Sequence record: NC_014260.1
Source: Escherichia phage IME08
Direction: 5' to 3' (one strand)
DNA length: 64,000 nucleotides
In this document: positions 3,978 through 37,166 of the stretch, in pieces
Layout: each line of letters begins with the position of its first letter
Position numbering within the stretch: the stretch's first letter is position 1
Notes under the pieces: model-generated
The model's database searches: none
What the model was told of the DNA's origin: nothing
What the model saw: the letters and a program-made list of their open reading frames with translations, nothing else
Program-made: the position numbers and the translations under genes

Positions 3978-4215
3978 CCTTGATGCATGATTCAGCCATA
4001 TGAATTAATGTTTCTGGAGTATCATCTACCATTACATTAAAGCTAAATTCCACAGCCCAATCAGTGAAAACATAAACCTTTACGACATCTTCGCTTTCAC
4101 CGTCAGTACAGCCTTCGAACCAGAATTTAATGATTGAAGGATTGCCATCGTCGTCAATAACCATACAATCATGTTTAAAGCATAATCCTGATTTTTTGAA
4201 TTCATCTAAAGTCAT
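3952..4215 (-). CDS. Hypothetical protein (46.2-like position)
   Basis: 87-aa ORF, start overlaps the gene 47 stop. Confidence 0.45.
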   Translation of the reverse strand: MTLDEFKKSGLCFKHDCMVIDDDGNPSIIKFWFEGCTDGESEDVVKVYVFTDWAVEFSFNVMVDDTPETLIHMAESCIKDAYNDENV

Positions 4216-5234
4216 CGTGTAACCTCATTATAAAGTTGTGCAGCCATAGTCTTAAGGGCTTTAACATCGTCTTCAGTGTGGCCATCAGGAAGGGCGTCGA
4301 TATAATCATACATCATATCCAAGAGGGACTTAACTTCATCTTCCTCTTCAGAATCATCGATATCAACACTGTTATCTACCTTAGACACGATACGTAAAGA
4401 ATGGACGACCTTTTCAAGCTCTGATTCGAACTTAGTAAGGCCATCATCGATTTTATCGACTATAACACGAACTGCAATATTTGTAAAATCTTTGTAATCG
4501 ATAGTCGCGTTAGGATAATGAATCTTACGGTGCCAACAGGTTTCATTGATGACGAAATCCATTGTATGGGTTTCTGTATCGAAAATCCAGAAGCCGCGAG
4601 GGTCGTTTTCATCACCTGCAGTCAGGGTCCATGGCGTACCAATATACTTAACGTTTGCTGCATCAGAAATAGTGTGGAAGTGGCCTGACCAAACTTGCTT
4701 ATACCTCTTAAGGAAATCAGGTTCTAAACCATGAGATTTCATTCCTTTATAGAAATAGAAACCATTTAATTCCCAGTGACCTATACAGAAATCTGCTGTA
4801 GTATTTTTGATATGGTCCATGATATCAGTAGTGTTTTCTTCACACATCCATGGAATCAAATCAATTTCGGTACCATCAAAGTTAACCGTAGTAGGTTTCT
4901 CAATAACCTTGATATGGTCGTATTTACCCAGAACTTCAGAAGCAGCGTTCGGAGTCAAGGTATTTTTGTAGTGTGCATCATGGTTGCCGACGACAGTATA
5001 CATGGTAATGCCGTTGGTTTTAAGCAAATCTGAAATATGTCTAGCAAATTCCATACACTTATGAGTAATTGCTTTACGAACATCAAAAATATCACCATAC
5101 TGAATCCAGACAGTGATACCATTTGCTTTAGAATAATTGATGGCATCTTTGATGCCTGCCAATTGGATGTTTTGCACCCAAGGGTCGTCGTTCTTCACTC
5201 CAAGGTGCCAGTCACCCGTATTAAGAATTTTCAT
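4212..5234 (-). CDS. 47: Recombination endonuclease subunit gp47 (Mre11/SbcD-like phosphoesterase)
   Basis: Start at MKILNTGDWHLG (metallophosphatase motif I), about 340 aa as T4 gp47 (339); GNHD motif present; synteny with 46. Confidence 0.88.
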   Translation of the reverse strand: MKILNTGDWHLGVKNDDPWVQNIQLAGIKDAINYSKANGITVWIQYGDIFDVRKAITHKCMEFARHISDLLKTNGITMYTVVGNHDAHYKNTLTPNAASEVLGKYDHIKVIEKPTTVNFDGTEIDLIPWMCEENTTDIMDHIKNTTADFCIGHWELNGFYFYKGMKSHGLEPDFLKRYKQVWSGHFHTISDAANVKYIGTPWTLTAGDENDPRGFWIFDTETHTMDFVINETCWHRKIHYPNATIDYKDFTNIAVRVIVDKIDDGLTKFESELEKVVHSLRIVSKVDNSVDIDDSEEEDEVKSLLDMMYDYIDALPDGHTEDDVKALKTMAAQLYNEVTR

Positions 5235-5838
5235 TACGTATTCGTTCCCACATTTTGGAGGCTGCTTTAGAAGCAGAGCCAGGAAGTTTACCTTTGACCC
5301 ACCCATCAGGAATATTAGATGGGTTAATCAGTTTATGTTCTATTCCGTTATTATACCACTTCCTGCCCTTATTATGACTAGATGCTTTATAATTAGGTGA
5401 ACGACCTTCTACATATCCTTCGGGGACTGTAGGTGCAAAGGTTTGTTCTAATGTAACAGGATTATAGGAATGAATATACCCTTTAGCATTATGAGAGCCG
5501 TAAAGAGGGTGTTGCTCTTTAGGTAGCGAAAGCCCAAAGAATCCTTTAGGAGCTGCGACAGCCCTATTAAAGAATAGAGGATTTTGGGCTGCATCGGTTC
5601 TTAACTGGTACATTCTTTCAGCTTCTAAAGCCTCTTCTCTTGTAGGGTGTTCACTTACAATACATGAGTCAAATAATTCTGGATGCTCTAAAAGCTCATT
5701 TTTATAGATTTCTTTATATGCTTTAGAAAGGACACTCCCGTGATATCCTTTTAAATGCTTCTCTAAAGTGGTAGACCCTATATAAAACGGTGGAAGCTTA
5801 GTCCCGGAATATATTGTCAGGTATGTGATGTATTTCAT
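5221..5838 (-). CDS. Putative homing endonuclease (GIY-YIG-like N-terminus, WYNNG-type C-terminal motif)
   Basis: 205 aa; N-terminal LTIYSG...FYIGST...KHLKG resembles GIY-(8-10 aa)-YIG; C-terminal GRKWYNNGIEHK...IPDGWVKG resembles DNA-binding modules of phage homing endonucleases; occupies the locus where T4 carries alpha-gt. Confidence 0.45.
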   Translation of the reverse strand: MKYITYLTIYSGTKLPPFYIGSTTLEKHLKGYHGSVLSKAYKEIYKNELLEHPELFDSCIVSEHPTREEALEAERMYQLRTDAAQNPLFFNRAVAAPKGFFGLSLPKEQHPLYGSHNAKGYIHSYNPVTLEQTFAPTVPEGYVEGRSPNYKASSHNKGRKWYNNGIEHKLINPSNIPDGWVKGKLPGSASKAASKMWERIRNENS

Positions 5839-5867
5839 AGATTTATTTTATCATCCATTCAGAAAGC

Positions 5868-5893
5868 AAAAAAGGAGCCTAAGCTCCTTTACC
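5868..5893 (-). terminator. Rho-independent terminator (minus strand)
   Basis: Minus-strand RNA GGAGC-UUAG-GCUCC stem-loop followed by UUUUU. Confidence 0.5.
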
Positions 5894-6294
5894 AACTAAT
5901 ACACCATACAGAGGTTCGTGATTAGACCTGAACTTGATAGGCTTATATGTAATAGTACCTTCATTTTCTGCTTTAATACGAGCGGCTTCAAATTTAAGCA
6001 ACATCTCATTTTTGTCAGATTTAATCTTATCAAAATCCATCGAATTCGTCATTCATACAACCTCTTAAACTTTTTCGTATTCGTCTTTCATTAGCCACCT
6101 GTCCATGTTATCATCGTTGCCACCATTTCTTAAGTTGGTGTGAATCCACCCAAACCTTGGCTACAGGCTCAATCCGAAAAATTTCATCGGAATATTGACC
6201 CATCATTTTGTATTCGGTTTCGGACTGCTTAATACAGATATTACCGTATGAGCGAAGTCTAAAGGCGGCTCCAATAAGAAGCCGTTTAAAGGGT

Positions 6295-6606
6295 TTATTT
6301 ACTAGAGCCATTGACGATTTCCCAAATTTGTTTGCGGGTAGATTCCCACATCAATTGAACAAGTTCATCAGTAACAGGTTGACGGTAAATACCACGTAAT
6401 TTAATTAAAGCGTACTTATATGCTTCAAAGTTGTTTTCAAGTACAGCGCCTTGGGCATGGAGATTTAAACGACGGATTTCACGAGCATTCTTCTTAAGAA
6501 TCTTAGCCGCTTGAGAATTAGCTTCTTTAATATTGTGCTCTTCTAAACGTTGCTGGGCTTCTTCAATTTGCTCATCAGTCAATTGAGAAATGTCATGGCT
6601 TTGCAT
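6295..6606 (-). CDS. Hypothetical protein
   Basis: 103-aa ORF, coiled-coil-like basic protein; same strand, tight packing. Confidence 0.45.
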   Translation of the reverse strand: MQSHDISQLTDEQIEEAQQRLEEHNIKEANSQAAKILKKNAREIRRLNLHAQGAVLENNFEAYKYALIKLRGIYRQPVTDELVQLMWESTRKQIWEIVNGSSK

Positions 6607-6607
6607 A

Positions 6608-6838
6608 TTAATCCTTTGGAGTCAATTCAATAGTGAAGTAGAAATTAGCGTTCTCAACATGATAACGATAATCTACGTTATTGTCAGGAGAAGTGAATTC
6701 AATATTCCTGACGTTAAGTGGGTCAATATCAATAGGAAGGCCTTTAACATCCCGTAATATCAATTTAATAAAATAAGGGAGTGCTTCGAAGTCTTCCATT
6801 CCATCTAAAAGTGGAGTGATATTAATCTGATGTTCCAT
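6608..6838 (-). CDS. Hypothetical protein
   Basis: Track ORF 6608-6874 begins with a non-ATG codon; first ATG at 6838, slightly overlapping the gene 55 end. Confidence 0.4.
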
Positions 6839-7379
6839 ATAAAAAATCCAGTTCACCGACTTTAGGTTCGGCACTCTTATCAGACCCTGGTGCTTTAGTT
6901 AAAGAGGTTTCATACTGAGTCATTTTGTCGTAGATATCTTGGATAAAGGTTTCATCTGCGATACCTACCATGTCGTCATCATTACTGTCATAGACGTTAT
7001 GGACGAAGTAGCTATATTTCTTTGCCATTTCTTTACGTTCTTTTTTGATACGCTGAACGAAGGCATTAAAACAAGCCATAGTGATATATGCATGTGGGTT
7101 GTCGTATTTTGTTTCGTCGAAGTTGTGAAGACCTTTAATCGAAGCTTCGATTCCATCAGCAATCATTTCTTGCTTCCAAGATTGGGTATATCCTGAGAAG
7201 TTGAAACGTTTACTTAGTCCTTCAGCAATGAGCATAATAGCCAAGCCAATAACGTCGTTCTGGCGAACTATTTTATTAGGATCAGTATTTTCTCTGAGCT
7301 CTGTTTTCCATTGGGTAATAGCTTTCAGAAGCTCCTTATTATTTACATAGTTATTTTTAGTCAGTTTAATTTCGGTCAT
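6822..7379 (-). CDS. 55: Late-transcription sigma factor gp55
   Basis: 185 aa, same length as T4 gp55; near-identical core [13 protein letters not shown]...[57 protein letters not shown]. Confidence 0.92.
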
Positions 7380-7404
7380 TGTTACCTCAGATAACTCAAA
7401 TCAT

Positions 7405-7445
7405 AGGTCTATTATATCATGGTATTTGAAGACCCTTTTAAAGCA
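7405..7445 (-). promoter_or_regulatory. Promoter-like element upstream of gene 55
   Basis: Minus-strand TATAAT followed by AGACCTATGA, resembling the downstream half of the repeated early promoter cassette; no canonical GTTTAC -35. Confidence 0.3.
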
Positions 7446-7709
7446 TCAACGGAGTAAGCAATAAGCCTGAAATACTGTTTCAAGGATTTTTTTGAACTCT
7501 TCAAAGGAAGGAGCTCCTTCAAACCCTTGGCTTTGAATGTAAAGACAGAATTGTTGGTAAAGGACCAAATATTCTGATTGGTTATATTTGGAAATATGGG
7601 ACTTCCATACTTCAGAAGTCTCTCCACAAATAAACTCAACATTCATATAACTATCTATTAAGAAAATCCCTAGTCCTTCGTAGGCGAGGGTAGTGGATAC
7701 AGGGGTCAT
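7446..7709 (-). CDS. Hypothetical protein
   Basis: 87-aa ORF; overlapping 76-aa ORF 7412-7642 is in another frame and judged less likely. Confidence 0.4.
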   Translation of the reverse strand: MTPVSTTLAYEGLGIFLIDSYMNVEFICGETSEVWKSHISKYNQSEYLVLYQQFCLYIQSQGFEGAPSFEEFKKILETVFQAYCLLR

Positions 7710-7972
7710 TGTAGGAATCGAGCTCCTTCCAGTGCGTCATCAAGATTATCAAACTCATCGACGTAATCAACACCGCCAACTTCATCCTTCGCATAAAGCC
7801 AGTACTGTTTAAATTCGTATTCGATGATAAAGTGGTCACCCTCAATCTGGAGAGTCCCATCACCATTAAATTGAACTGCATAACCTGTAAAGCGGACATC
7901 ATTCAAGAGTTCTTCTTTCATAGCAATCATTTCCAAGTTTTTATCGTAATTAGAGAGTTTTATTTTAATCAT
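7706..7972 (-). CDS. Hypothetical protein
   Basis: 88-aa ORF, ATGA overlap with downstream gene. Confidence 0.45.
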   Translation of the reverse strand: MIKIKLSNYDKNLEMIAMKEELLNDVRFTGYAVQFNGDGTLQIEGDHFIIEYEFKQYWLYAKDEVGGVDYVDEFDNLDDALEGARFLQ

Positions 7973-8213
7973 TCAAATAATCCTCAAATTCATTTAATGT
8001 CATGCCTTCATCCCAAGCTATTTTTGGGTCAGGCATTTTCATATAAGTGGTTTTAGAGCTTATAGGAAATATCCTGAAATCACGATGACTTCCACTTAGC
8101 ATCTTAGCCGCTTTTATAATAGTTTCAATATTATTCATCATGGGTGTACGTTGGAACCCGGCTAAAGCTTTAAGGACTATTATAACCGATACACCCTCAG
8201 GCAAATTATTCAT
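7965..8213 (-). CDS. Hypothetical protein
   Basis: 82-aa ORF, same strand, overlapping neighbours by a few nt. Confidence 0.45.
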   Translation of the reverse strand: MNNLPEGVSVIIVLKALAGFQRTPMMNNIETIIKAAKMLSGSHRDFRIFPISSKTTYMKMPDPKIAWDEGMTLNEFEDYLND

Positions 8214-8539
8214 TTAGCTGCCTTAACAATTTTCAGGTCGACGAATTTTTTCTTACGTTGGTTTTTCATACGACGGATAGTTTTATCCGTGATTTCACCA
8301 GGGCACCAAGCTTTGGATTCAACACCAAAGGCAGCGACATCGAATTCATCAAGGATATATTGGACCAGGATTTCACGAATACCATTCTTACCAATTTTCT
8401 GGTCTTTGGAGTGCATGATTGGTAACAGTTCGGCAACCCATTGGTCAAGAACCTGAGGAGTTACAAAACCTGTTTTCATCAGTTCGTTTACTTTATCGAA
8501 AGCGAAAGAGTTCAGTACGTTTTTAATTGCTTGTGACAT
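8210..8539 (-). CDS. Hypothetical protein (N-terminus MSQAIKNV, shares its initiation region with the gene at 15319-16161)
   Basis: Start moved to the ATG preceded by SD GAGGAAATT, because an early promoter lies inside the longer track ORF. Confidence 0.5.
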   Translation of the reverse strand: MSQAIKNVLNSFAFDKVNELMKTGFVTPQVLDQWVAELLPIMHSKDQKIGKNGIREILVQYILDEFDVAAFGVESKAWCPGEITDKTIRRMKNQRKKKFVDLKIVKAAK

Positions 8540-8578
8540 AATAATTTCCTCAGTTTTAAAGTTATAATCCGTAGGACC

Positions 8579-8608
8579 ATTATACTCTGGTCCCAAGAGT
8601 TTGTAAAC
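8579..8608 (-). promoter_or_regulatory. T4-type early promoter (PeSL-like cassette)
   Basis: Minus strand: GTTTAC (-35), 18-nt spacer, TATAAT (-10); inverted repeat GGGACCA/TGGTCC flanks the -10. Confidence 0.55.
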
Positions 8609-8808
8609 TATTTTTGTGCTTTAGCGCCTTTCCAACCTTCGAACATCATTGCTGCGGAAATTAACAAAGCGCCTGAACAAGCTGAATATTTGTGGTTCCA
8701 AAACCAGTTCAGAAAAACTTCGTCATCAATACCTTGGGCTATCATATTTTCAAAGAACTGACGACGGGCTTCAGAAATTTGCTGTGATAATTTAGATTCA
8801 GGATTCAT
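8608..8808 (-). CDS. Hypothetical protein
   Basis: 66-aa ORF. Confidence 0.4.
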   Translation of the reverse strand: MNPESKLSQQISEARRQFFENMIAQGIDDEVFLNWFWNHKYSACSGALLISAAMMFEGWKGAKAQK

Positions 8809-8940
8809 TTAAATTTTCCAATTGCCATTTTCATCAATGAATTTAACCCAGTCATTTACTGACCACTTGGTTGTATCGCCTTTTGGAGCAACATTTAAAG
8901 TATACAACCCTTGCTTAAAAAGCATTCGTTTGATATTCAT
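8809..8940 (-). CDS. Hypothetical small protein (43 aa)
   Basis: Internal ATG of track ORF 8809-9033 with strong SD GAGGAAACT, 8 nt after the upstream stop. Confidence 0.35.
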   Translation of the reverse strand: MNIKRMLFKQGLYTLNVAPKGDTTKWSVNDWVKFIDENGNWKI

Positions 8941-8947
8941 AGTTTCC

Positions 8948-9241
8948 TCAGCTGTAACGATAACATTCGTTTGATTTACGTTTTGCAACTTGATGAGAAG
9001 TATTGTAATCAGGTTCATCATCGTTGTAAACATCTTTTTTCAGCTTTCTCACTTCTTTACGAAGTTGGCGGTTCATTTCATTCTTAACTTCTGAGTCAAC
9101 GCCTCTCATACGTTTCCACTTGTCGGAACGGAAGATATTTTCTTCAACCAAATCCTGACTTACGCCGACCGGTGCTTTACGACGCCCGGAATAATAAAAA
9201 TCTTTTACAGACAATTCTTTACGACGGATAGTTTTACCCAT
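8948..9241 (-). CDS. Hypothetical basic protein
   Basis: 97-aa ORF, Lys/Arg-rich. Confidence 0.45.
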   Translation of the reverse strand: MGKTIRRKELSVKDFYYSGRRKAPVGVSQDLVEENIFRSDKWKRMRGVDSEVKNEMNRQLRKEVRKLKKDVYNDDEPDYNTSHQVAKRKSNECYRYS

Positions 9242-9243
9242 AG

Positions 9244-9498
9244 TTACCTCAGCAGTTTGTATCCAATAAGATTTTTAATGTATTGGACATCTTTGACATC
9301 CAAATCTAACTTAATATCTTTCAGGCGTTCAGCCAGAGTAAGAAATGTTACACGTTTCCAATTCTTAACAGGACAGCAATAAGTTTTAGGGCCGTTGGCG
9401 ATTTCAATATTCTTATCAGTGACGGTGAGAAAAATCAGGCGCTCATCATCCAGATTAAGGGTAATGATATTTTTCATTGAATGTAATTTCAGGCTCAT
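9244..9498 (-). CDS. Hypothetical protein
   Basis: 84-aa ORF. Confidence 0.45.
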   Translation of the reverse strand: MSLKLHSMKNIITLNLDDERLIFLTVTDKNIEIANGPKTYCCPVKNWKRVTFLTLAERLKDIKLDLDVKDVQYIKNLIGYKLLR

Positions 9499-9677
9499 AA
9501 TTTAATTTCCTTAGCTATCGAACAAAACAAACTACGGTCACATACCATCAATGGAATATTTCTATGGTCTAGTACACGATACCATACGTCTGAATCGCTA
9601 GCAGCAATTACACGAACCGCACGCCCATTTACCAAATAATACTGGTCGGCTTTAATTTCTTTATCTTGGATAGTCAT
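9495..9677 (-). CDS. Hypothetical protein
   Basis: 60-aa ORF, SD GAGGAG upstream, immediately downstream of an early promoter. Confidence 0.45.
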   Translation of the reverse strand: MTIQDKEIKADQYYLVNGRAVRVIAASDSDVWYRVLDHRNIPLMVCDRSLFCSIAKEIKL

Positions 9678-9706
9678 AATGTTCTCCTCATGTGTTGATA
9701 GGATAG

Positions 9707-9735
9707 ACTATAACATGTGAGGAGAGGAAGTAAAC
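9707..9735 (-). promoter_or_regulatory. T4-type early promoter
   Basis: Minus strand GTTTAC, 17-nt spacer, TATAGT, then CTATCCTATCAAC. Confidence 0.5.
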
Positions 9736-9736
9736 A

Positions 9737-10054
9737 CTAATCTTCAATTAAATCTCGGTCATAACCAAGTTCAATCAAAAGTGACTTAAAGGCAGGAATA
9801 TTTTCTATTTTCTTATTATCGACAAATATGACAGGATAGCGTATCGCTAAGCTCTTGAAGCCTGCACGTTTGGCCAATGATACTATAAGAGGCTTGTCAT
9901 ATACTGCGCCTGACGGCGTCTGATTAATCACAGGATAGAAAGTATGTGGGATAGAAAGGGAATTTAGGAGCGATAGAACAGCAATGCACCCTGGACAGCG
10001 CATGACTGTCTCAGGGATACCATAAATCTCAATTTTAGTTAACTTTTGGTCCAC
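9737..10054 (-). CDS. Glutaredoxin/NrdH-like thioredoxin-fold protein
   Basis: 105 aa with CPGC active-site-like motif after a beta strand (IEIYG) and a P-VIFVD element; occupies the T4 nrdH position between 55 and 49. Confidence 0.5.
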   Translation of the reverse strand: MDQKLTKIEIYGIPETVMRCPGCIAVLSLLNSLSIPHTFYPVINQTPSGAVYDKPLIVSLAKRAGFKSLAIRYPVIFVDNKKIENIPAFKSLLIELGYDRDLIED

Positions 10055-10331
10055 AGGAAATAACTCCTTGGTAGTCCCAGGTTTTTAGAACTTCGTCTTC
10101 ATTAGTTCCGTATGGAACGTAAACCTGTACAAGGAACCCGGTATCATCAAAAGAGAAGTAGACAGTAGGTTTAATACCATGAATCTCTGACAGAGCATAG
10201 ATGTCCTTGAGGTCGTCTTCCTTACCTTTAAAGAATTCCGGGTTCAGGTCACAGTCATGGAAGTACCAATCATCACCGAATTTGTCCCAGGCGGTCCAAT
10301 TGGTAGCTACATACTCTTCAAAACGTTTCAT
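10035..10331 (-). CDS. Hypothetical acidic protein
   Basis: 98-aa ORF. Confidence 0.45.
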   Translation of the reverse strand: MKRFEEYVATNWTAWDKFGDDWYFHDCDLNPEFFKGKEDDLKDIYALSEIHGIKPTVYFSFDDTGFLVQVYVPYGTNEDEVLKTWDYQGVISCGPKVN

Positions 10332-10555
10332 TCTTTCACCTTCATCATTTTAGAAATAACACCGTGAACAGCCTGGATTCGTTTTTCGAACTCAGACCCT
10401 TCAAGACCTTTTTCAGTACTCAGGGCACCGATAATAACAAACAGTAATCCAAACGGGATGACCAGGATTAAAAGGCATACGATAAACAGGGCAAATGTAA
10501 TATTGGCCAGGATATCGGAAACAGCATTACGAAATTTGTTCATTAAAGAACCCAC
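10328..10555 (-). CDS. Small membrane protein (two predicted TM helices)
   Basis: 75-aa ORF, hydrophobic core LANITFALFIVCLLILVIPFGLLFVIIGAL. Confidence 0.45.
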   Translation of the reverse strand: MGSLMNKFRNAVSDILANITFALFIVCLLILVIPFGLLFVIIGALSTEKGLEGSEFEKRIQAVHGVISKMMKVKE

Positions 10556-10664
10556 ATGTTAGTTACAACAAATAACCATTGAGCAGGATACTCAACACCC
10601 ATAATACGCACCGCATCGTTCAGAGATTCGGTTAAAGCATAAAATGTGTAGCCATAAAAATTAA

Positions 10665-11138
10665 TCATTTAAGCGATTTCCTCAGTTGTTTTTTAAACGA
10701 ATCGACCATTTGTTTCTTAGTAGCAGATTCATTATAAGTCATTCCATGTGAAAGCATTTCAGCAATCATTTCTTCCTTACCCAACCTGCTGAACTCTTTG
10801 GTTTTATCGGGAACGAAATTAGGATGAATATTGTTTTCAGTATAATCAGCTTTCAGATAGACCAGCAAATTCTCTAACCATTCGAGGTAGTCAACGTTTT
10901 GACCTTTAAGACCAGAACGGTTGAACTTATGCTTCATTTGTCCTTCTGCAGCATTGCACAGGTTACATAGTAAACCACGAACCTTACCGGCTTTTGGCCC
11001 GTTTAACTCGTGGTCGTGGTCAAGGTGGTTACTTTGAACATCAGGGTTTAATTCACGTTTACAAATCAAACACTTACCACATTGTGCATCATAAAGTTTT
11101 TGTTTTTCTTCTTTGTATAATTTGCCGGTCAACAACAT
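10665..11138 (-). CDS. 49: Endonuclease VII (Holliday-junction resolvase) gp49
   Basis: 157 aa, identical length to T4 gp49 and near-identical sequence MLLTGKLYKEEKQK.YDAQ.GKCLIC.RELNPDVQ.NHLDHDHELNGPKAGKVRGLLCNLCNAAEGQMKHKF. Confidence 0.93.
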   Translation of the reverse strand: MLLTGKLYKEEKQKLYDAQCGKCLICKRELNPDVQSNHLDHDHELNGPKAGKVRGLLCNLCNAAEGQMKHKFNRSGLKGQNVDYLEWLENLLVYLKADYTENNIHPNFVPDKTKEFSRLGKEEMIAEMLSHGMTYNESATKKQMVDSFKKQLRKSLK

Positions 11139-11270
11139 AATAAACCCTTACCATTATTAGATAAGGGTATTTATTAATATCCTAATAGTTTAGCAGTGCA
11201 ACTTAGCACTAACAACAATCCGAATAAAACAACTCCTACCCAAAATACCGTAATAAGAGCATCCATATCA

Positions 11271-11444
11271 GACCCCATAGAACGAACGATGCAAACGTTT
11301 GAATTGACGAATCATCTTTTTAGTAGGACGGGTGTATAATCCTACACAGGTGGCCATAAACTGGTCGGTAGGACTTCCTTTGATAAGAAGTTTCCAGACC
11401 TTACCACCATTCAACTTTTCGGTATAGACTAATTTAGTTTTCAT
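11271..11444 (-). CDS. Hypothetical small protein (57 aa, below the ORF-track cutoff)
   Basis: ATG overlapping the upstream stop (TGATG coupling); translation MKTKLVYTEKLNGGKVWKLLIKG...; coordinates approximate. Confidence 0.3.
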
Positions 11445-11659
11445 CAGAACGCCTCGTCGGAAAAGCGAAGTTGAGCTTCAAGCCAATGAATATAATCGGC
11501 TGCAGCTTTAATCAAATCGGATTCTAAGTCAGGTAAAGAACCCGAATCCGACAATTCGTAAAGCGAATGTTCAATCAGACGGCCTTTATGACGGCCAACT
11601 TCAATTTTGGTACCCATATCCAAACTCCATATCGATGAAATCATTGTTTGAAGGTTCAT
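11444..11659 (-). CDS. Hypothetical protein
   Basis: 71-aa track ORF; the true start is probably an internal Met because the -10 of the upstream promoter overlaps the first ATG. Confidence 0.4.
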   Translation of the reverse strand: MNLQTMISSIWSLDMGTKIEVGRHKGRLIEHSLYELSDSGSLPDLESDLIKAAADYIHWLEAQLRFSDEAF

Positions 11660-11733: not shown

Positions 11734-12042
11734 TTAACGGTCACACCACCAACTACTTACTTCAAAATCAGGTTCACCGTGTTCCCAGTACCAAGGGCCG
11801 ACTGGATGCCAATCGCCATGTTCATCTTCTTCAAATTCTTCAGATTCAAGCCCAACATATTGCCATTGGACTTCATAAGCGGTGCCACCTATTACAACGG
11901 TGTTCTCGCCATATGGGTGAGCTACAGCAAAGTCTATACCTTCTGCTTTAGCCAACCAAACCATATATTCGTATAGTTTATATTCCAGGTCATCTTCGGT
12001 GCCATCACCTAGAAAAATGGTTTGTTCGTTTAATTCAATCAT
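11734..12042 (-). CDS. Hypothetical acidic Trp-rich protein
   Basis: 102-aa ORF. Confidence 0.45.
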   Translation of the reverse strand: MIELNEQTIFLGDGTEDDLEYKLYEYMVWLAKAEGIDFAVAHPYGENTVVIGGTAYEVQWQYVGLESEEFEEDEHGDWHPVGPWYWEHGEPDFEVSSWWCDR

Positions 12043-12215
12043 AATTCCACCATAAATTCAAATAGCTGGTCACGTACACAAGTATCAGTCCAGCCCCATT
12101 CGTTGGCTTCTTCTTTTAACCAATCCGGGAGATTTGCCAATACGGTTTCTTTACTAGGCGCAGGAGTATCAAACTCACTTGCGCAGGTTCCATAAGCTAT
12201 ATCAAATTCAGTCAT
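12039..12215 (-). CDS. Hypothetical protein
   Basis: Track ORF 12039-12284; likely start at MTEFDIAYG, with ATGA overlap onto the upstream small ORF. Confidence 0.4.
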   Translation of the reverse strand: MTEFDIAYGTCASEFDTPAPSKETVLANLPDWLKEEANEWGWTDTCVRDQLFEFMVEL

Positions 12216-12379
12216 TTGAAGTTCCAGAATGAAGCACCAACCAGAAATAAAGGCCAACAAATCATAGACGTCAGCCACCAACAAAAGTCACCTGCACCGA
12301 AATCATCTAATTTAGCTAGGGTCTTAGCATAACCAATACCGATGATAAGATACAAAATACCCAACAATAATTCAATCAT
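12212..12379 (-). CDS. Small hydrophobic protein (55 aa, below the ORF-track cutoff)
   Basis: ATG overlaps the nrdC stop (ATGA); translation MIELLLGILYLIIGIGYAKTLAKLDDFGAGDFCWWLTSMICWPLFLVGASFWNFK; coordinates approximate. Confidence 0.35.
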   Translation of the reverse strand: MIELLLGILYLIIGIGYAKTLAKLDDFGAGDFCWWLTSMICWPLFLVGASFWNFK

Positions 12380-27956: not shown

Positions 27957-28259
27957 TTATTTACCTTTAATTGCTTTAGCTGCTTCGGTAGCCGCTTGCT
28001 GAAGGTCATCCATAGACATACCAAACTTAGAAGCAAAGTTATCAATTTTCTTTTCGACAGAATTCAAAGGCTTGGCCTGTTTACCTTCATTAGCGCCCGG
28101 GAGAGCGAGAATACGCTCTTTGTCAATATAAAGGCTTACAAGTTTCTTACGGTCTTTATCTGGCAAATCATGAAATGAATGGGCCTTTTTATTTACAGCG
28201 GCTTCTAATTTACCTGCGGTTACGCGGGCTTCAGTGATAAATTCATTATAAGTTTTCAT
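27957..28259 (-). CDS. Internal head protein with capsid targeting sequence
   Basis: 100 aa, N-terminal [11 protein letters not shown]; lies between denV and e where T4 carries ipIII. Confidence 0.65.
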
Positions 28260-28740
28260 ATGCTTTCCAAGTACCTGTTTTAAATGTTGAAATCACGCGC
28301 TTAGCACGATTAGGAGTTTGTTTATACCAACGGGATTGAGCCAGGTTAACTGCCGCATCGTCCCAACGTTTCTGTTGGAGCATACGTAAAGAGTTAGTGA
28401 ACCCAGCTACACCTGCTTCACCCATCTGGAAGACCATGTTAATTAAAGCACAACGACGAACTTCGTCCAGTACATCATAAACAGGTTTCAATTTAGGATT
28501 ACGCAGAATAGCTCTACGAGCATTTTCAACCGATCGGTTAAAGAGTTGTTCAGCTTCAGCCATAGTAATACGACCGTTGCAAACCCGGCCCATAAGCTTA
28601 TCAAGTTCGGCACGAGCAACATCTTTTGAAGGGTTTTTGGTAATCAACTGGCCAATCCCAATAGTCCAATAACCTTCGGTGTCTTTATAAAGATTTAAAT
28701 CAAGACCTTCGTCTTGACGTAACATATCAAAAATATCCAT
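28246..28740 (-). CDS. e: Lysozyme (endolysin) e, glycoside hydrolase family 24
   Basis: 164 aa, same length as T4 lysozyme; [35 protein letters not shown]...[32 protein letters not shown]. Confidence 0.93.
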
Positions 28741-28742
28741 AA

Positions 28743-28771
28743 TACCTCCTGAGTATAGGAGGTATTTATAT
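28743..28771 (-). promoter_or_regulatory. SD-sequestering hairpin plus late promoter for gene e
   Basis: 8-bp inverted repeat (UACCUCCU / AGGAGGUA) pairs the SD of e; minus-strand TATAAATA abuts and overlaps the 5' arm. Confidence 0.6.
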
Positions 28772-36548: not shown

Positions 36549-37166
36549 TTATTTACGGGTCTTTTCGAACTGGGCCGCGTCACCAGCCAGACGACGAGCT
36601 TGACGAAGTTTGTTGTCGATTTCTTCGCGCATAGGCTGGGTATACTTAAGGCCTTCAACCGTCAGATAGAGGCGATAAAGGTCTGGGGTGTCTAGGTTGT
36701 TAATGTGCTGTCCGTTACGAAGAGTATTGAATTCACGAACAAGGTGTTTAGTTTCGGATTCGATTTCAGAAACCAAAGAAGCCAGTTGATTATATTTTTT
36801 AACTATAGTGCTGGTGTCAAACTTGATTTTAGGTTTAGGAGCTTCTTTTACCGGTTCGGCTTTAGGCGTCGGTTTCGGCGCTGCAACTTTGGCCTGGGCT
36901 GCAGGTTTAGCAACAGGAGCTTTAGCTGGTTTAGCAGGCTTAGTAGCGCCGCCAGCTACGATATCTTTAAAAGCTTTAGAAGCTTTGTAATATTCTTTCT
37001 GGTTACTAGTATCAAAACCATACATATCATAAACGTTTTTAAAGAATTCGGTGGTGGTTTTAGTCCCAGAAATTTTATCATAAGCCGCTTGCCACATATC
37101 TTTAGTCATGCGGACGCCGGCTTCGGTCAGAACGCTTTCGTTCAAAAATTCATTGTAAGTTTTCAT
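36549..37166 (-). CDS. Internal head protein (IPIII-like, basic Lys/Ala/Pro-rich) with capsid targeting sequence
   Basis: 205 aa; N-terminal [11 protein letters not shown]; Ala/Lys/Pro-rich basic middle region; its own late promoter upstream. Confidence 0.6.
   Translation of the reverse strand: MKTYNEFLNESVLTEAGVRMTKDMWQAAYDKISGTKTTTEFFKNVYDMYGFDTSNQKEYYKASKAFKDIVAGGATKPAKPAKAPVAKPAAQAKVAAPKPTPKAEPVKEAPKPKIKFDTSTIVKKYNQLASLVSEIESETKHLVREFNTLRNGQHINNLDTPDLYRLYLTVEGLKYTQPMREEIDNKLRQARRLAGDAAQFEKTRK

Follow-up and report, generated by a model that had tools for sequence, protein, structure and literature searches.

Introduction

The closest described systems for the locus considered here are bacteriophage T4 and the JS98-type phages. 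In the T4 RefSeq record the gene order is 47, 47.1, a-gt, mobB, a-gt.2 to a-gt.5, 55 and 55.1 to 55.6, followed by nrdH, 55.8, nrdG, mobC, nrdD (with the I-TevII intron) and 49. The a-gt gene is restricted to T-even-type phages, and JS98 possesses genes 42 and 56 and lacks glucosyltransferase genes; JS98 and JS10 were also reported to be without homing endonuclease genes (Petrov 2010). JS98, JS10 and IME08 have been tabulated with nrdB-nrdA only (Dwivedi 2013, Table S1). The gaps of dhakaviruses at the glucosyltransferase and anaerobic reductase loci are already known from these publications.

Results

The window, by which we mean the whole stretch of 64,000 nucleotides of Escherichia phage IME08 that was analyzed (NC_014260.1), is, as judged by nucleotide identity, a Dhakavirus stretch from a JS98-type T4-like coliphage. 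It is 96% identical over 7 kb to QL01 and 97.6% identical over 25 kb to IME341, both of which belong to Dhakavirus. From gene 45 on it is collinear with T4. In the interval from 47 to 49 every gene is on the minus strand, the strand of all features described below, and the order is 47, a 205-aa ORF, a-gt.2, a-gt.3, a-gt.4, a-gt.5, 55, twelve small ORFs with NrdH among them as a further gene, and 49. The flanking genes and small ORFs are one-to-one orthologous to T4 genes, with the addition of a few lineage-specific ORFs.

Gene 47 encodes an SbcD/Mre11-like recombination nuclease subunit with a Metallophos domain (4212..5234; 71% identity to T4 gp47). Its true start is that of MKILN at 5234, and the start at 5306 given by the ORF finder is an upstream extension: the T4 gp47 match begins at residue 25 of the long ORF, and the QL01 and WG01 annotations use the equivalent ATG. 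The adjoining 205-aa ORF (5221..5838) encodes a putative free-standing homing endonuclease of the GIY-YIG fold in a short form. A candidate terminator-like hairpin, found by consensus scan alone, is located between the endonuclease gene and a-gt.2 (5871..5890). Orthologues of T4 a-gt.2 (DUF5486; 5879..6052; 57% identity; Pfam DUF5486 E = 1e-19), a-gt.3 (6111..6311; 46% identity; phrog_1648), a-gt.4 (DUF2654; 6295..6606; 41% identity; Pfam E = 4e-23) and a-gt.5 (DUF5491; 6608..6874; 41% identity; Pfam E = 2.7e-14) then lead to gene 55, the late sigma factor (6822..7379; 79% identity to T4 gp55). The true start of a-gt.5 is probably at 6838, as in the QL01 annotation. An earlier sequence-only reading had counted two small ORFs between 47 and 55 and about ten between 55 and 49; the actual numbers are four, and twelve plus NrdH.

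Beyond gene 55, a small DUF7200 ORF that has no T4 match in the interval (7446..7709; Pfam E = 4.7e-31) is followed by the orthologue of T4 55.1 (7706..7972; 53% identity) and by an 82-aa ORF (7965..8213; phrog_5589) that is variable among dhakaviruses, being found in IME341 and not in QL01 or WG01. The orthologues of 55.2 (DUF7570; 8210..8596; 65% identity), 55.3 (8608..8808; 73% identity), 55.4 (43 aa; 8809..8940) and 55.5 (8948..9241; 73% identity) come next. The 55.4 boundaries follow the QL01 annotation, the 74-aa ORF reaching 9033 being an over-extension that is 93% identical to T4 55.4 over its last 43 residues. A small DUF7290 ORF absent from T4 at this place (9244..9498; Pfam E = 3.6e-43) precedes the 55.6 orthologue (9495..9677; 54% identity) and NrdH (9737..10054). 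The remaining genes are a 98-aa ORF, also absent from T4 here, with no Pfam match (10035..10331; phrog_2749 E = 2.9e-48), the orthologue of the predicted membrane protein 55.8 (10328..10555; 42% identity), a 41-aa ORF with no similarity to NrdD or NrdG (10543..10668; phrog_3350), and gene 49, encoding endonuclease VII (10665..11138; 87% identity to T4 gp49, with a Pfam match).

The sequence-only reading had described the a-gt, nrdG and nrdD loci as empty, and indeed no such gene is present between 47 and 55 or between 55 and 49. It was equally correct that no ORF there has the size of NrdD or of a glycosyltransferase; the largest besides gene 55 is the ORF of 205 aa. For comparison, T4 a-gt has about 400 aa, NrdD is a glycyl-radical catalytic subunit of about 600 aa, and NrdG is a radical-SAM activase of about 156 aa. 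When T4 a-gt, NrdG and both NrdD exons were searched against the 64-kb window with tblastn, nothing better than E = 0.7 was obtained, the best value for the NrdD exons and NrdG being 0.9. Profile searches (Pfam and PHROG) of every ORF in the interval detected no glycosyltransferase or reductase family. The region as originally delimited, to position 10054, stopped short of the place of nrdG-mobC-nrdD, which is at 10543-10668 between 55.8 and 49. The sole occupant of this place, which spans ~3.9 kb in T4, is the 41-aa ORF, and the same is true of QL01, WG01 and IME341.

The window represents about 64 of about 170 kb, which would leave room for the suggestion that a-gt or another glucosyltransferase, together with nrdD and nrdG, had moved elsewhere in the phage genome, beyond the window. 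Such relocation is unsupported and, we judge, extremely improbable. When T4 a-gt, NrdG and NrdD were searched with tblastn against the complete genome of QL01, which is 96% identical here, no match reached E <= 0.01; NrdA and NrdB were found in that genome. The published nrdAB-only entries for JS98, JS10 and IME08 and the reported lack of glucosyltransferase genes in JS98 also argue against it. The emptiness of these loci is genuine yet unremarkable, because the JS98-type group was already known to be without both enzyme systems.

The CPGC protein encoded next to 55.6 is intact and orthologous to T4 NrdH, with which it aligns over its full length (61% identity over 102 of 105 residues), its CPGC against that of T4. 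It matches the thioredoxin domain family phrog_22 (E = 1.5e-13), and its Pfam Glutaredoxin match is sub-threshold (E = 0.016). This protein had been thought orphaned from its partners. NrdH is intact, and NrdAB is present in the lineage, as seen in QL01. The notion of an orphan is weak because partnership with a class III enzyme is itself doubtful: formate is the reductant of class III reductases, and redoxins serve class I enzymes (PMC4009431).

A different pattern of DNA hypermodification had also been proposed, and it finds support, although only by way of relatives and published work. In QL01, the interval from uvsX to gene 43 encodes a thymidylate-synthase homologue (Pfam Thymidylat_synt), a protein resembling P-loop kinases and an NTP-transferase/kinase of 557 aa (Pfam NTP_transferase and APH). 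The last of these shares 42% identity with RB69 ORF052/053, and about 50 records, those of JS98 and JS10 among them, contain it at 95% identity or more. The uvsX-43 cluster, which is positioned just outside the window to its left, has been assigned to arabosylated 5-hydroxycytosine, with dhakaviruses listed as carriers (PMC13326640, NAR 2026). Judging from these relatives, dhakaviruses would modify cytosine by an RB69-type route, in which the thymidylate-synthase homologue would make 5-hydroxy-dCMP, further enzymes would synthesize NDP-arabinose, and an arabinosyltransferase would act on the modified base.

No second transferase ORF resembling RB69p003, or of its size, was evident between rIIA and gene 39 in QL01, and the 297-aa ORF of QL01 beside the thymidylate-synthase homologue has no Pfam glycosyltransferase domain. 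Both observations would suit the view that glycosylation is simply lacking along with a-gt, with cytosines 5-hydroxymethylated or 5-hydroxylated without a sugar, or unmodified; the question was left open for JS98 (Petrov 2010). We regard this as quite improbable. The bifunctional NDP-sugar synthesis enzyme and its RB69-cluster neighbors are kept in all dhakaviruses sampled, and synteny, including the position of the first arabinosyltransferase, puts dhakaviruses among the arabinosylating lineages (PMC13326640). Because of this gene content, dhakavirus DNA, which would carry the RB69-type modification, is not expected to act like glucosyl-hmC T4 DNA toward restriction enzymes or type IV systems, a difference relevant to cloning, sequencing and phage therapy.

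The GIY-YIG-like character first proposed for the 205-aa ORF was confirmed at the level of fold. In the AlphaFold model, residues 1-95 (pLDDT 94-98) adopt the order beta-beta-alpha-alpha-beta-alpha, and the top PDB matches found by Foldseek are to the I-TevI catalytic domain (1mk0, 1ln0; probability 1.00, target-normalized TM 0.60, E = 0.011), followed by Slx1. The ORF belongs to PHROG 10820 (E = 1.5e-92) and is under the gathering score of Pfam GIY-YIG (PF01541; 16.9 versus 22.6 bits, E = 0.008), and 11 of 40 relatives show weak matches to that family (E <= 0.01, the best 5.5e-4). NUMOD3 is found in 25 of the 40, with no match in the copy in the window. Residues Y10, Y19-I20-G21, E74 and N91 are invariant across the 40 relatives; Y10, Y19, G21, E74 and N91 fall near Y6, Y17, G19, E75 and N90 of I-TevI. 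An invariant arginine at the position of I-TevI Arg27 was not found among the relatives; R67 is nearly invariant but is located elsewhere. From sequence and model together, the 205-aa ORF looks like a free-standing homing endonuclease. The database label for its family is "HNH endonuclease".

It had been supposed that the endonuclease sits in the place of a-gt. This is wrong: the gene it replaces is 47.1, a 47-aa gene whose position in T4 and WG01 the ORF takes, and Tequatrovirus Lutter carries both the endonuclease and a-gt. The last 14 nt of the ORF overlap the start of gene 47. Homology to the endonuclease-free WG01 and IME341 stops precisely at the start codon of gene 47 and restarts 4 nt upstream of the start of the ORF, such that a 607-bp endonuclease cassette stands in place of a 157-bp one. 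The endonuclease is present in QL01, IME540, NC-G and B-01 and absent from WG01 and IME341, which have 47.1 instead; KIT01 and SHP1 encode at the same spot a 284-aa long form with an extra C-terminal domain. At the DNA level it is found in only 13 records, RefSeq/GenBank duplicates counted. It adjoins gene 47 in Dhakavirus, Tequatrovirus Lutter and Klebsiella phage HMGUkp2, and in some tequatroviruses the same endonuclease is located between a-gt and 47. In two pairwise comparisons, identity to IME341 is 83% over the first ~230 nt of gene 47 and 94-99% over the rest of the gene.

The existence of the longer form in KIT01 and SHP1 raises the question of whether the 205-aa ORF, instead of being an active mobile endonuclease, has decayed or been domesticated, having lost a C-terminal DNA-binding domain, and is kept only through its overlap with the gene 47 start, and the arginine missing from its canonical position and the sub-threshold Pfam score would agree with this. 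We find it unlikely, since the short form has kept 57-70% identity and a conserved tail of its own in phages of Escherichia, Klebsiella, Serratia and Erwinia, and the equivalents of the catalytic Glu and Asn are invariant. The cassette is, moreover, 99.3% identical to that of QL01, and the flanks about 95%; this excess of identity over the flanks suggests recent transfer.

Discussion

We consider it about 85% probable that the observed pattern is made up of three separate, ordinary differences from T4, at a-gt, at nrdDG and at the 205-aa ORF. The a-gt gene, together with mobB, would be a T-even-specific cassette missing from the Dhakavirus lineage. In this lineage nrdD and nrdG are absent genome-wide. 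NrdD occurs in 2,914 phage records, many T4-like genera among them, at about 35-42 kb, and because it is so widespread at a similar map position in other T4-like genera, the change is most simply explained as lineage-specific loss and not as a gene pair never gained, a reading based on distribution and not on a tree. The endonuclease gene would have been inserted directly upstream of gene 47 in place of 47.1. Cleavage by its product probably takes place in or close to the 5' end of gene 47 in relatives that have no endonuclease, and the cassette would then be copied in by recombinational repair along with flanking gene 47 sequence.

The phage would keep aerobic NrdAB plus the redoxins NrdC and NrdH, and in the absence of oxygen host NrdDG and host DNA breakdown would supply precursors. 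A more extended proposal, which we put forward tentatively, combines two elements: dhakaviruses, which are gut coliphages, dropped their own anaerobic reductase, with NrdH serving NrdAB or another thiol-redox role untied to class III and with anaerobic dependence on host NrdDG for DNA precursors; and the short endonuclease would be an active homing enzyme that crosses genera, from a GIY-YIG subfamily whose active site is rearranged. Lack of the anaerobic reductase suggests a dependence on the host in the gut that could be tested. The GIY-YIG assignment corrects a widespread "HNH" label, and the endonuclease by gene 47 adds modestly to the known T4-type mobile genes.

The free-standing GIY-YIG homing endonucleases of T-even phages (SegA to SegG), together with the catalytic domain of I-TevI, resemble the 205-aa ORF in having a GIY-YIG fold at the N terminus followed by a C-terminal extension, in intergenic insertion by a conserved gene, in sporadic distribution and in a divergent patch in the neighboring gene. 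The ORF differs from them in its shorter GIY-to-YIG spacing (Y10 to Y19), its sub-threshold Pfam score, the absence of an invariant Arg at the I-TevI Arg27 position and, for the copy in the window, the absence of a NUMOD3 match. In comparison with the RB69-type arabinosylated 5-hydroxycytosine pathway (PMC13326640; Thomas 2018, PMC6024577), dhakavirus relatives have the thymidylate-synthase homologue, the kinase-like gene and the NTP-transferase/kinase in the same uvsX-43 interval, although their enzyme is just 42% identical to that of RB69.

With the 47 to 49 region of T4 (Tequatrovirus), the window shares orthologues of 47, a-gt.2-a-gt.5, 55, 55.1-55.6, nrdH, 55.8 and 49, at 41-93% protein identity. 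T4 has in addition 47.1, a-gt and mobB, as well as nrdG, mobC and the intron-containing nrdD; the window has in addition the DUF7200 and DUF7290 ORFs and those of 82, 98 and 41 aa. The nearest systems are the dhakaviruses JS98, JS10, IME08, QL01, WG01 and IME341 (Tevenvirinae), which have 92-98% nucleotide identity with the window and, like it, the gene order from 45 to nrdC with the same small ORFs and without a-gt, nrdG and nrdD. The window is a mosaic, closest overall to IME341 yet carrying the endonuclease cassette of QL01.

Gene order and lineage

The a-gt (alpha-glucosyltransferase), nrdG and nrdD (class III, anaerobic ribonucleotide reductase) genes that are missing here are absent as a trait of the Dhakavirus lineage, one that published work has tabulated and, for the most part, explained. 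Two aspects are new, and only modestly so: a series of alleles upstream of gene 47 and the reassignment of an endonuclease family to the GIY-YIG fold.

From 683 to about 42,400, the genes of the window all lie on the minus strand and correspond in content to the T4 early/middle region. A 7-kb query around the 47-49 region matched QL01 with 96% identity over 96% of its length, and some forty further records matched with coverage of at least 80%; of these matches, QL01, WG01, IME341 and KIT01 were checked more closely, and all four are classified as Dhakavirus. Over the next 25 kb, identity is 97.6% to IME341 and 92% to JS98. On this near-identity to classified dhakaviruses, the window is, judged from its sequence, that of a JS98-type (Dhakavirus) T4-like coliphage.

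BLASTP against the T4 proteins of the region gave a clean one-to-one map. The order begins 45, rpbA, 45.2, 46, 46.1, 46.2, 47 (4212-5234), continues with a 205-aa ORF (5221-5838), a-gt.2, a-gt.3, a-gt.4, a-gt.5 and 55 (6822-7379), then with a DUF7200 ORF, 55.1, an 82-aa ORF, 55.2, 55.3, 55.4, 55.5, a DUF7290 ORF, 55.6 and nrdH (9737-10054), and ends with a 98-aa ORF, 55.8, a 41-aa ORF (10543-10668) and 49 (10665-11138). In the T4 RefSeq record, which agrees with the layout given in the sequence-only reading, the order is 47, 47.1, a-gt, mobB, a-gt.2 to a-gt.5, 55, 55.1 to 55.6, nrdH, 55.8, nrdG, mobC, nrdD, 49, with nrdD split by the I-TevII intron. That reading undercounted the small ORFs, of which there are four rather than two between 47 and 55, and twelve plus NrdH rather than about ten between 55 and 49. 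Its interval of 5221-10054 also stopped just short of the empty nrdDG site at 10543-10668.

Several smaller differences accompany this order. Two patches, at 4000-4199 in 46.2 and at 7400-7599 in the DUF7200 ORF, are only about 76% identical to QL01, against 95-100% in the surrounding sequence; the latter patch is 98.5% identical to IME341, which indicates fine-scale mosaicism. The 82-aa ORF (phrog_5589; 7965-8213, minus strand) varies by insertion or deletion among dhakaviruses: IME341 has it, QL01 and WG01 do not, and this explains the 4% of the 7-kb query that QL01 leaves uncovered. In QL01 a mobC-like gene for an HNH endonuclease stands between genes 3 and 2 (28116-28766 of stretch L006, equivalent to about 41,600 in the window); it finds no match in the window, so homing-endonuclease content differs among near-identical phages. 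Beyond gene 49, T4 pin (161 aa) is apparently fragmentary at 11268-11659 (minus strand), where ORFs of 71 and 58 aa match only Pin residues 102-160, and a different small ORF occupies the position in QL01. T4 49.2 has no counterpart in 11734-12379, where the interval from 49.3 to nrdC holds two small, unrelated ORFs (12039-12284 and 12212-12379).

Absence of a-gt, nrdG and nrdD

The a-gt and nrdDG loci had been read as empty, and this was borne out: tblastn found no homologue of T4 a-gt, NrdG or either NrdD exon in the 64-kb window (best E = 0.7), and a search of the window for remnants of a-gt, nrdG, nrdD, mobC and I-TevII returned chance-level matches only (E ≤ 10). Nor did Pfam and PHROG profile searches of every ORF in the interval reveal homologues among the small ORFs: they found only T4-type families of unknown function, together with the sigma factor, endonuclease VII, a protein of thioredoxin fold and a family of homing endonucleases. 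No glycosyltransferase domain was detected when the larger ORFs of uncharacterised function in the rest of the window were scanned. The 41-aa and 98-aa ORFs were ruled out as NrdG or NrdD derivatives, as they show no similarity and PHROG places them in separate families without assigned function.

Relocation of these genes, one of the explanations put forward earlier, is not supported because the same T4 protein queries found no a-gt, NrdG or NrdD match at E ≤ 0.01 in the complete QL01 genome, in a search where the T4 control locus scored fully. QL01 encodes both NrdA and NrdB, and JS98, JS10 and IME08 have been tabulated with nrdB-nrdA only (Dwivedi et al. 2013, PMC3653736, Table S1). Since a-gt is confined to T-even-type phages (Petrov et al. 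2010, PMC2993671) and 47, 47.1 and a-gt.2 are contiguous in endonuclease-free dhakaviruses, the "empty" locus is better described as an extra a-gt/mobB cassette carried by T4. NrdD occurs in 2,914 phage records, many T4-like genera among them (phages of Escherichia, Klebsiella, Serratia, Aeromonas and Vibrio), in which its map position is typically similar; the simplest reading of its lack in dhakaviruses is a lineage-specific loss, drawn from distribution rather than from a tree.

A putative homing endonuclease adjoining gene 47

The 205-aa ORF (minus strand) matches PHROG 10820 (E = 1.5e-92) and PHROG 314, "homing endonuclease" (E = 4.6e-16), while its match to Pfam GIY-YIG is sub-threshold (16.9 versus 22.6 bits). 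Y10, Y19-I20-G21, E74 and N91 are the same in all of 40 aligned relatives, which have no invariant arginine at the position of I-TevI Arg27 and a nearly invariant R67. NUMOD3 is found in 25 of the 40, and weak GIY-YIG matches in 11. Among PDB structures, the AlphaFold model of the N-terminal domain (pLDDT 94-98) matches two GIY-YIG nucleases best, first the I-TevI catalytic domain and next Slx1; I-TevI was found by fold comparison only, single-sequence and profile searches of the PDB giving no useful match. Because of this fold and these matches, the RefSeq label "HNH endonuclease" appears to be wrong. A second 205-aa ORF (36549-37166) is unrelated to the endonuclease.

Homology to endonuclease-free WG01 and IME341 ends precisely at the start codon of gene 47 (5234), which the last codons of the 205-aa ORF overlap, and picks up again at 5842 (WG01) or 5857 (IME341), so that a 607-bp cassette stands in place of their 157-bp cassette with gene 47.1. 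At the DNA level the cassette occurs in only 13 phage records, RefSeq/GenBank duplicates included, and in five of them, from four phages (KIT01, SHP1, vB_EcoM_005 and LQ5), a longer 284-aa form occupies the same site. This form (P0001; 1140-1994 of the KIT01 stretch L011) has an identical N-terminal 125 residues and an additional C-terminal domain of about 100 aa. Tequatrovirus Lutter has a 61%-identical copy between a-gt and 47, and in Klebsiella phage HMGUkp2 a 67%-identical copy adjoins 47. The constant neighbour across phages is thus gene 47, and the endonuclease, which coexists with a-gt in Lutter and here stands at the site of 47.1, is no substitute for a-gt as had been proposed.

The cassette is 99.3% identical to that of QL01, whereas elsewhere the window most resembles endonuclease-free IME341; to the latter, identity is only 83% in the first ~230 nt of gene 47 and 94-99% in the remainder. 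Relative to endonuclease-free dhakaviruses, the 5' end of gene 47 (5000-5234) has a cluster of substitutions including P18V, L25R, A26Q and K29Q, which may be either a co-conversion tract or target-site divergence beside the endonuclease gene. Intronless homing with co-conversion is known for the T4 seg genes (PMC2988022). Both the QL01-like cassette and the divergent 5' end of gene 47 fit such homing and co-conversion by an endonuclease whose activity and target are putative.

A search for T4 late promoters (TATAAATA) that might drive gene 47 from inside the endonuclease gene found none anywhere in 5000-11400, a sigma-70 scan gave chance-level results, and no promoter-like site was recognised for the endonuclease gene. 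A terminator-like GC hairpin with a T-run (5871-5890, minus strand) directly follows the a-gt.2 stop, 33 nt upstream of the endonuclease start.

NrdH

With the GTG start at 10054, the CPGC protein (9737-10054, minus strand) aligns end to end with T4 NrdH at 61% identity with CPGC conserved, and by sequence it is an intact T4 NrdH orthologue. RefSeq starts nrdH at an internal Met, giving 88 aa, in QL01 (L001 8297-8563) and WG01 (L009 5347-5613); the GTG start, as annotated in IME341, recovers an N-terminal strand that aligns with T4 NrdH. The gene had been called orphaned from its partners: an nrdH orthologue without nrdDG is indeed present, but the partnership itself is doubtful, as class III reductases use formate as reductant, while class Ib enzymes are reduced by redoxins of the NrdH type and class Ia enzymes by thioredoxin or glutaredoxin (PMC4009431). 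NrdAB and NrdC are kept in the lineage, and the likeliest role of NrdH would be as a redoxin for NrdAB or in another thiol-redox task.

DNA modification

The suggestion of altered hypermodification was right in spirit, the evidence coming from QL01 and the literature. JS98 shares with RB69 the presence of genes 42 and 56 and the lack of glucosyltransferase genes, which left its modification open (Petrov et al. 2010, PMC2993671). RB69-type phages produce arabinosylated 5-hydroxycytosine, and dhakaviruses are listed among the lineages with the arabinosylation cluster on the basis of syntenic gene order from the DNA polymerase gene to rIIA (2026 NAR paper, PMC13326640); the RB69 NDP-arabinose enzyme has a homologue in IME08 (Thomas et al. 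2018, PMC6024577). The uvsX-43 locus falls just to the left of the window, which begins with gene 45, and the cluster was seen in QL01. In that genome the interval encodes a thymidylate-synthase homologue, a P-loop kinase-like protein, a 119-aa isomerase-annotated ORF, a 557-aa protein and two more ORFs. The 557-aa protein, which combines an NTP-transferase with a phosphotransferase, is shared at 95% identity or more by about fifty records, among them JS98, JS10, MX01 and LHE83; its full-length identity to RB69 ORF052/053 is 42%.
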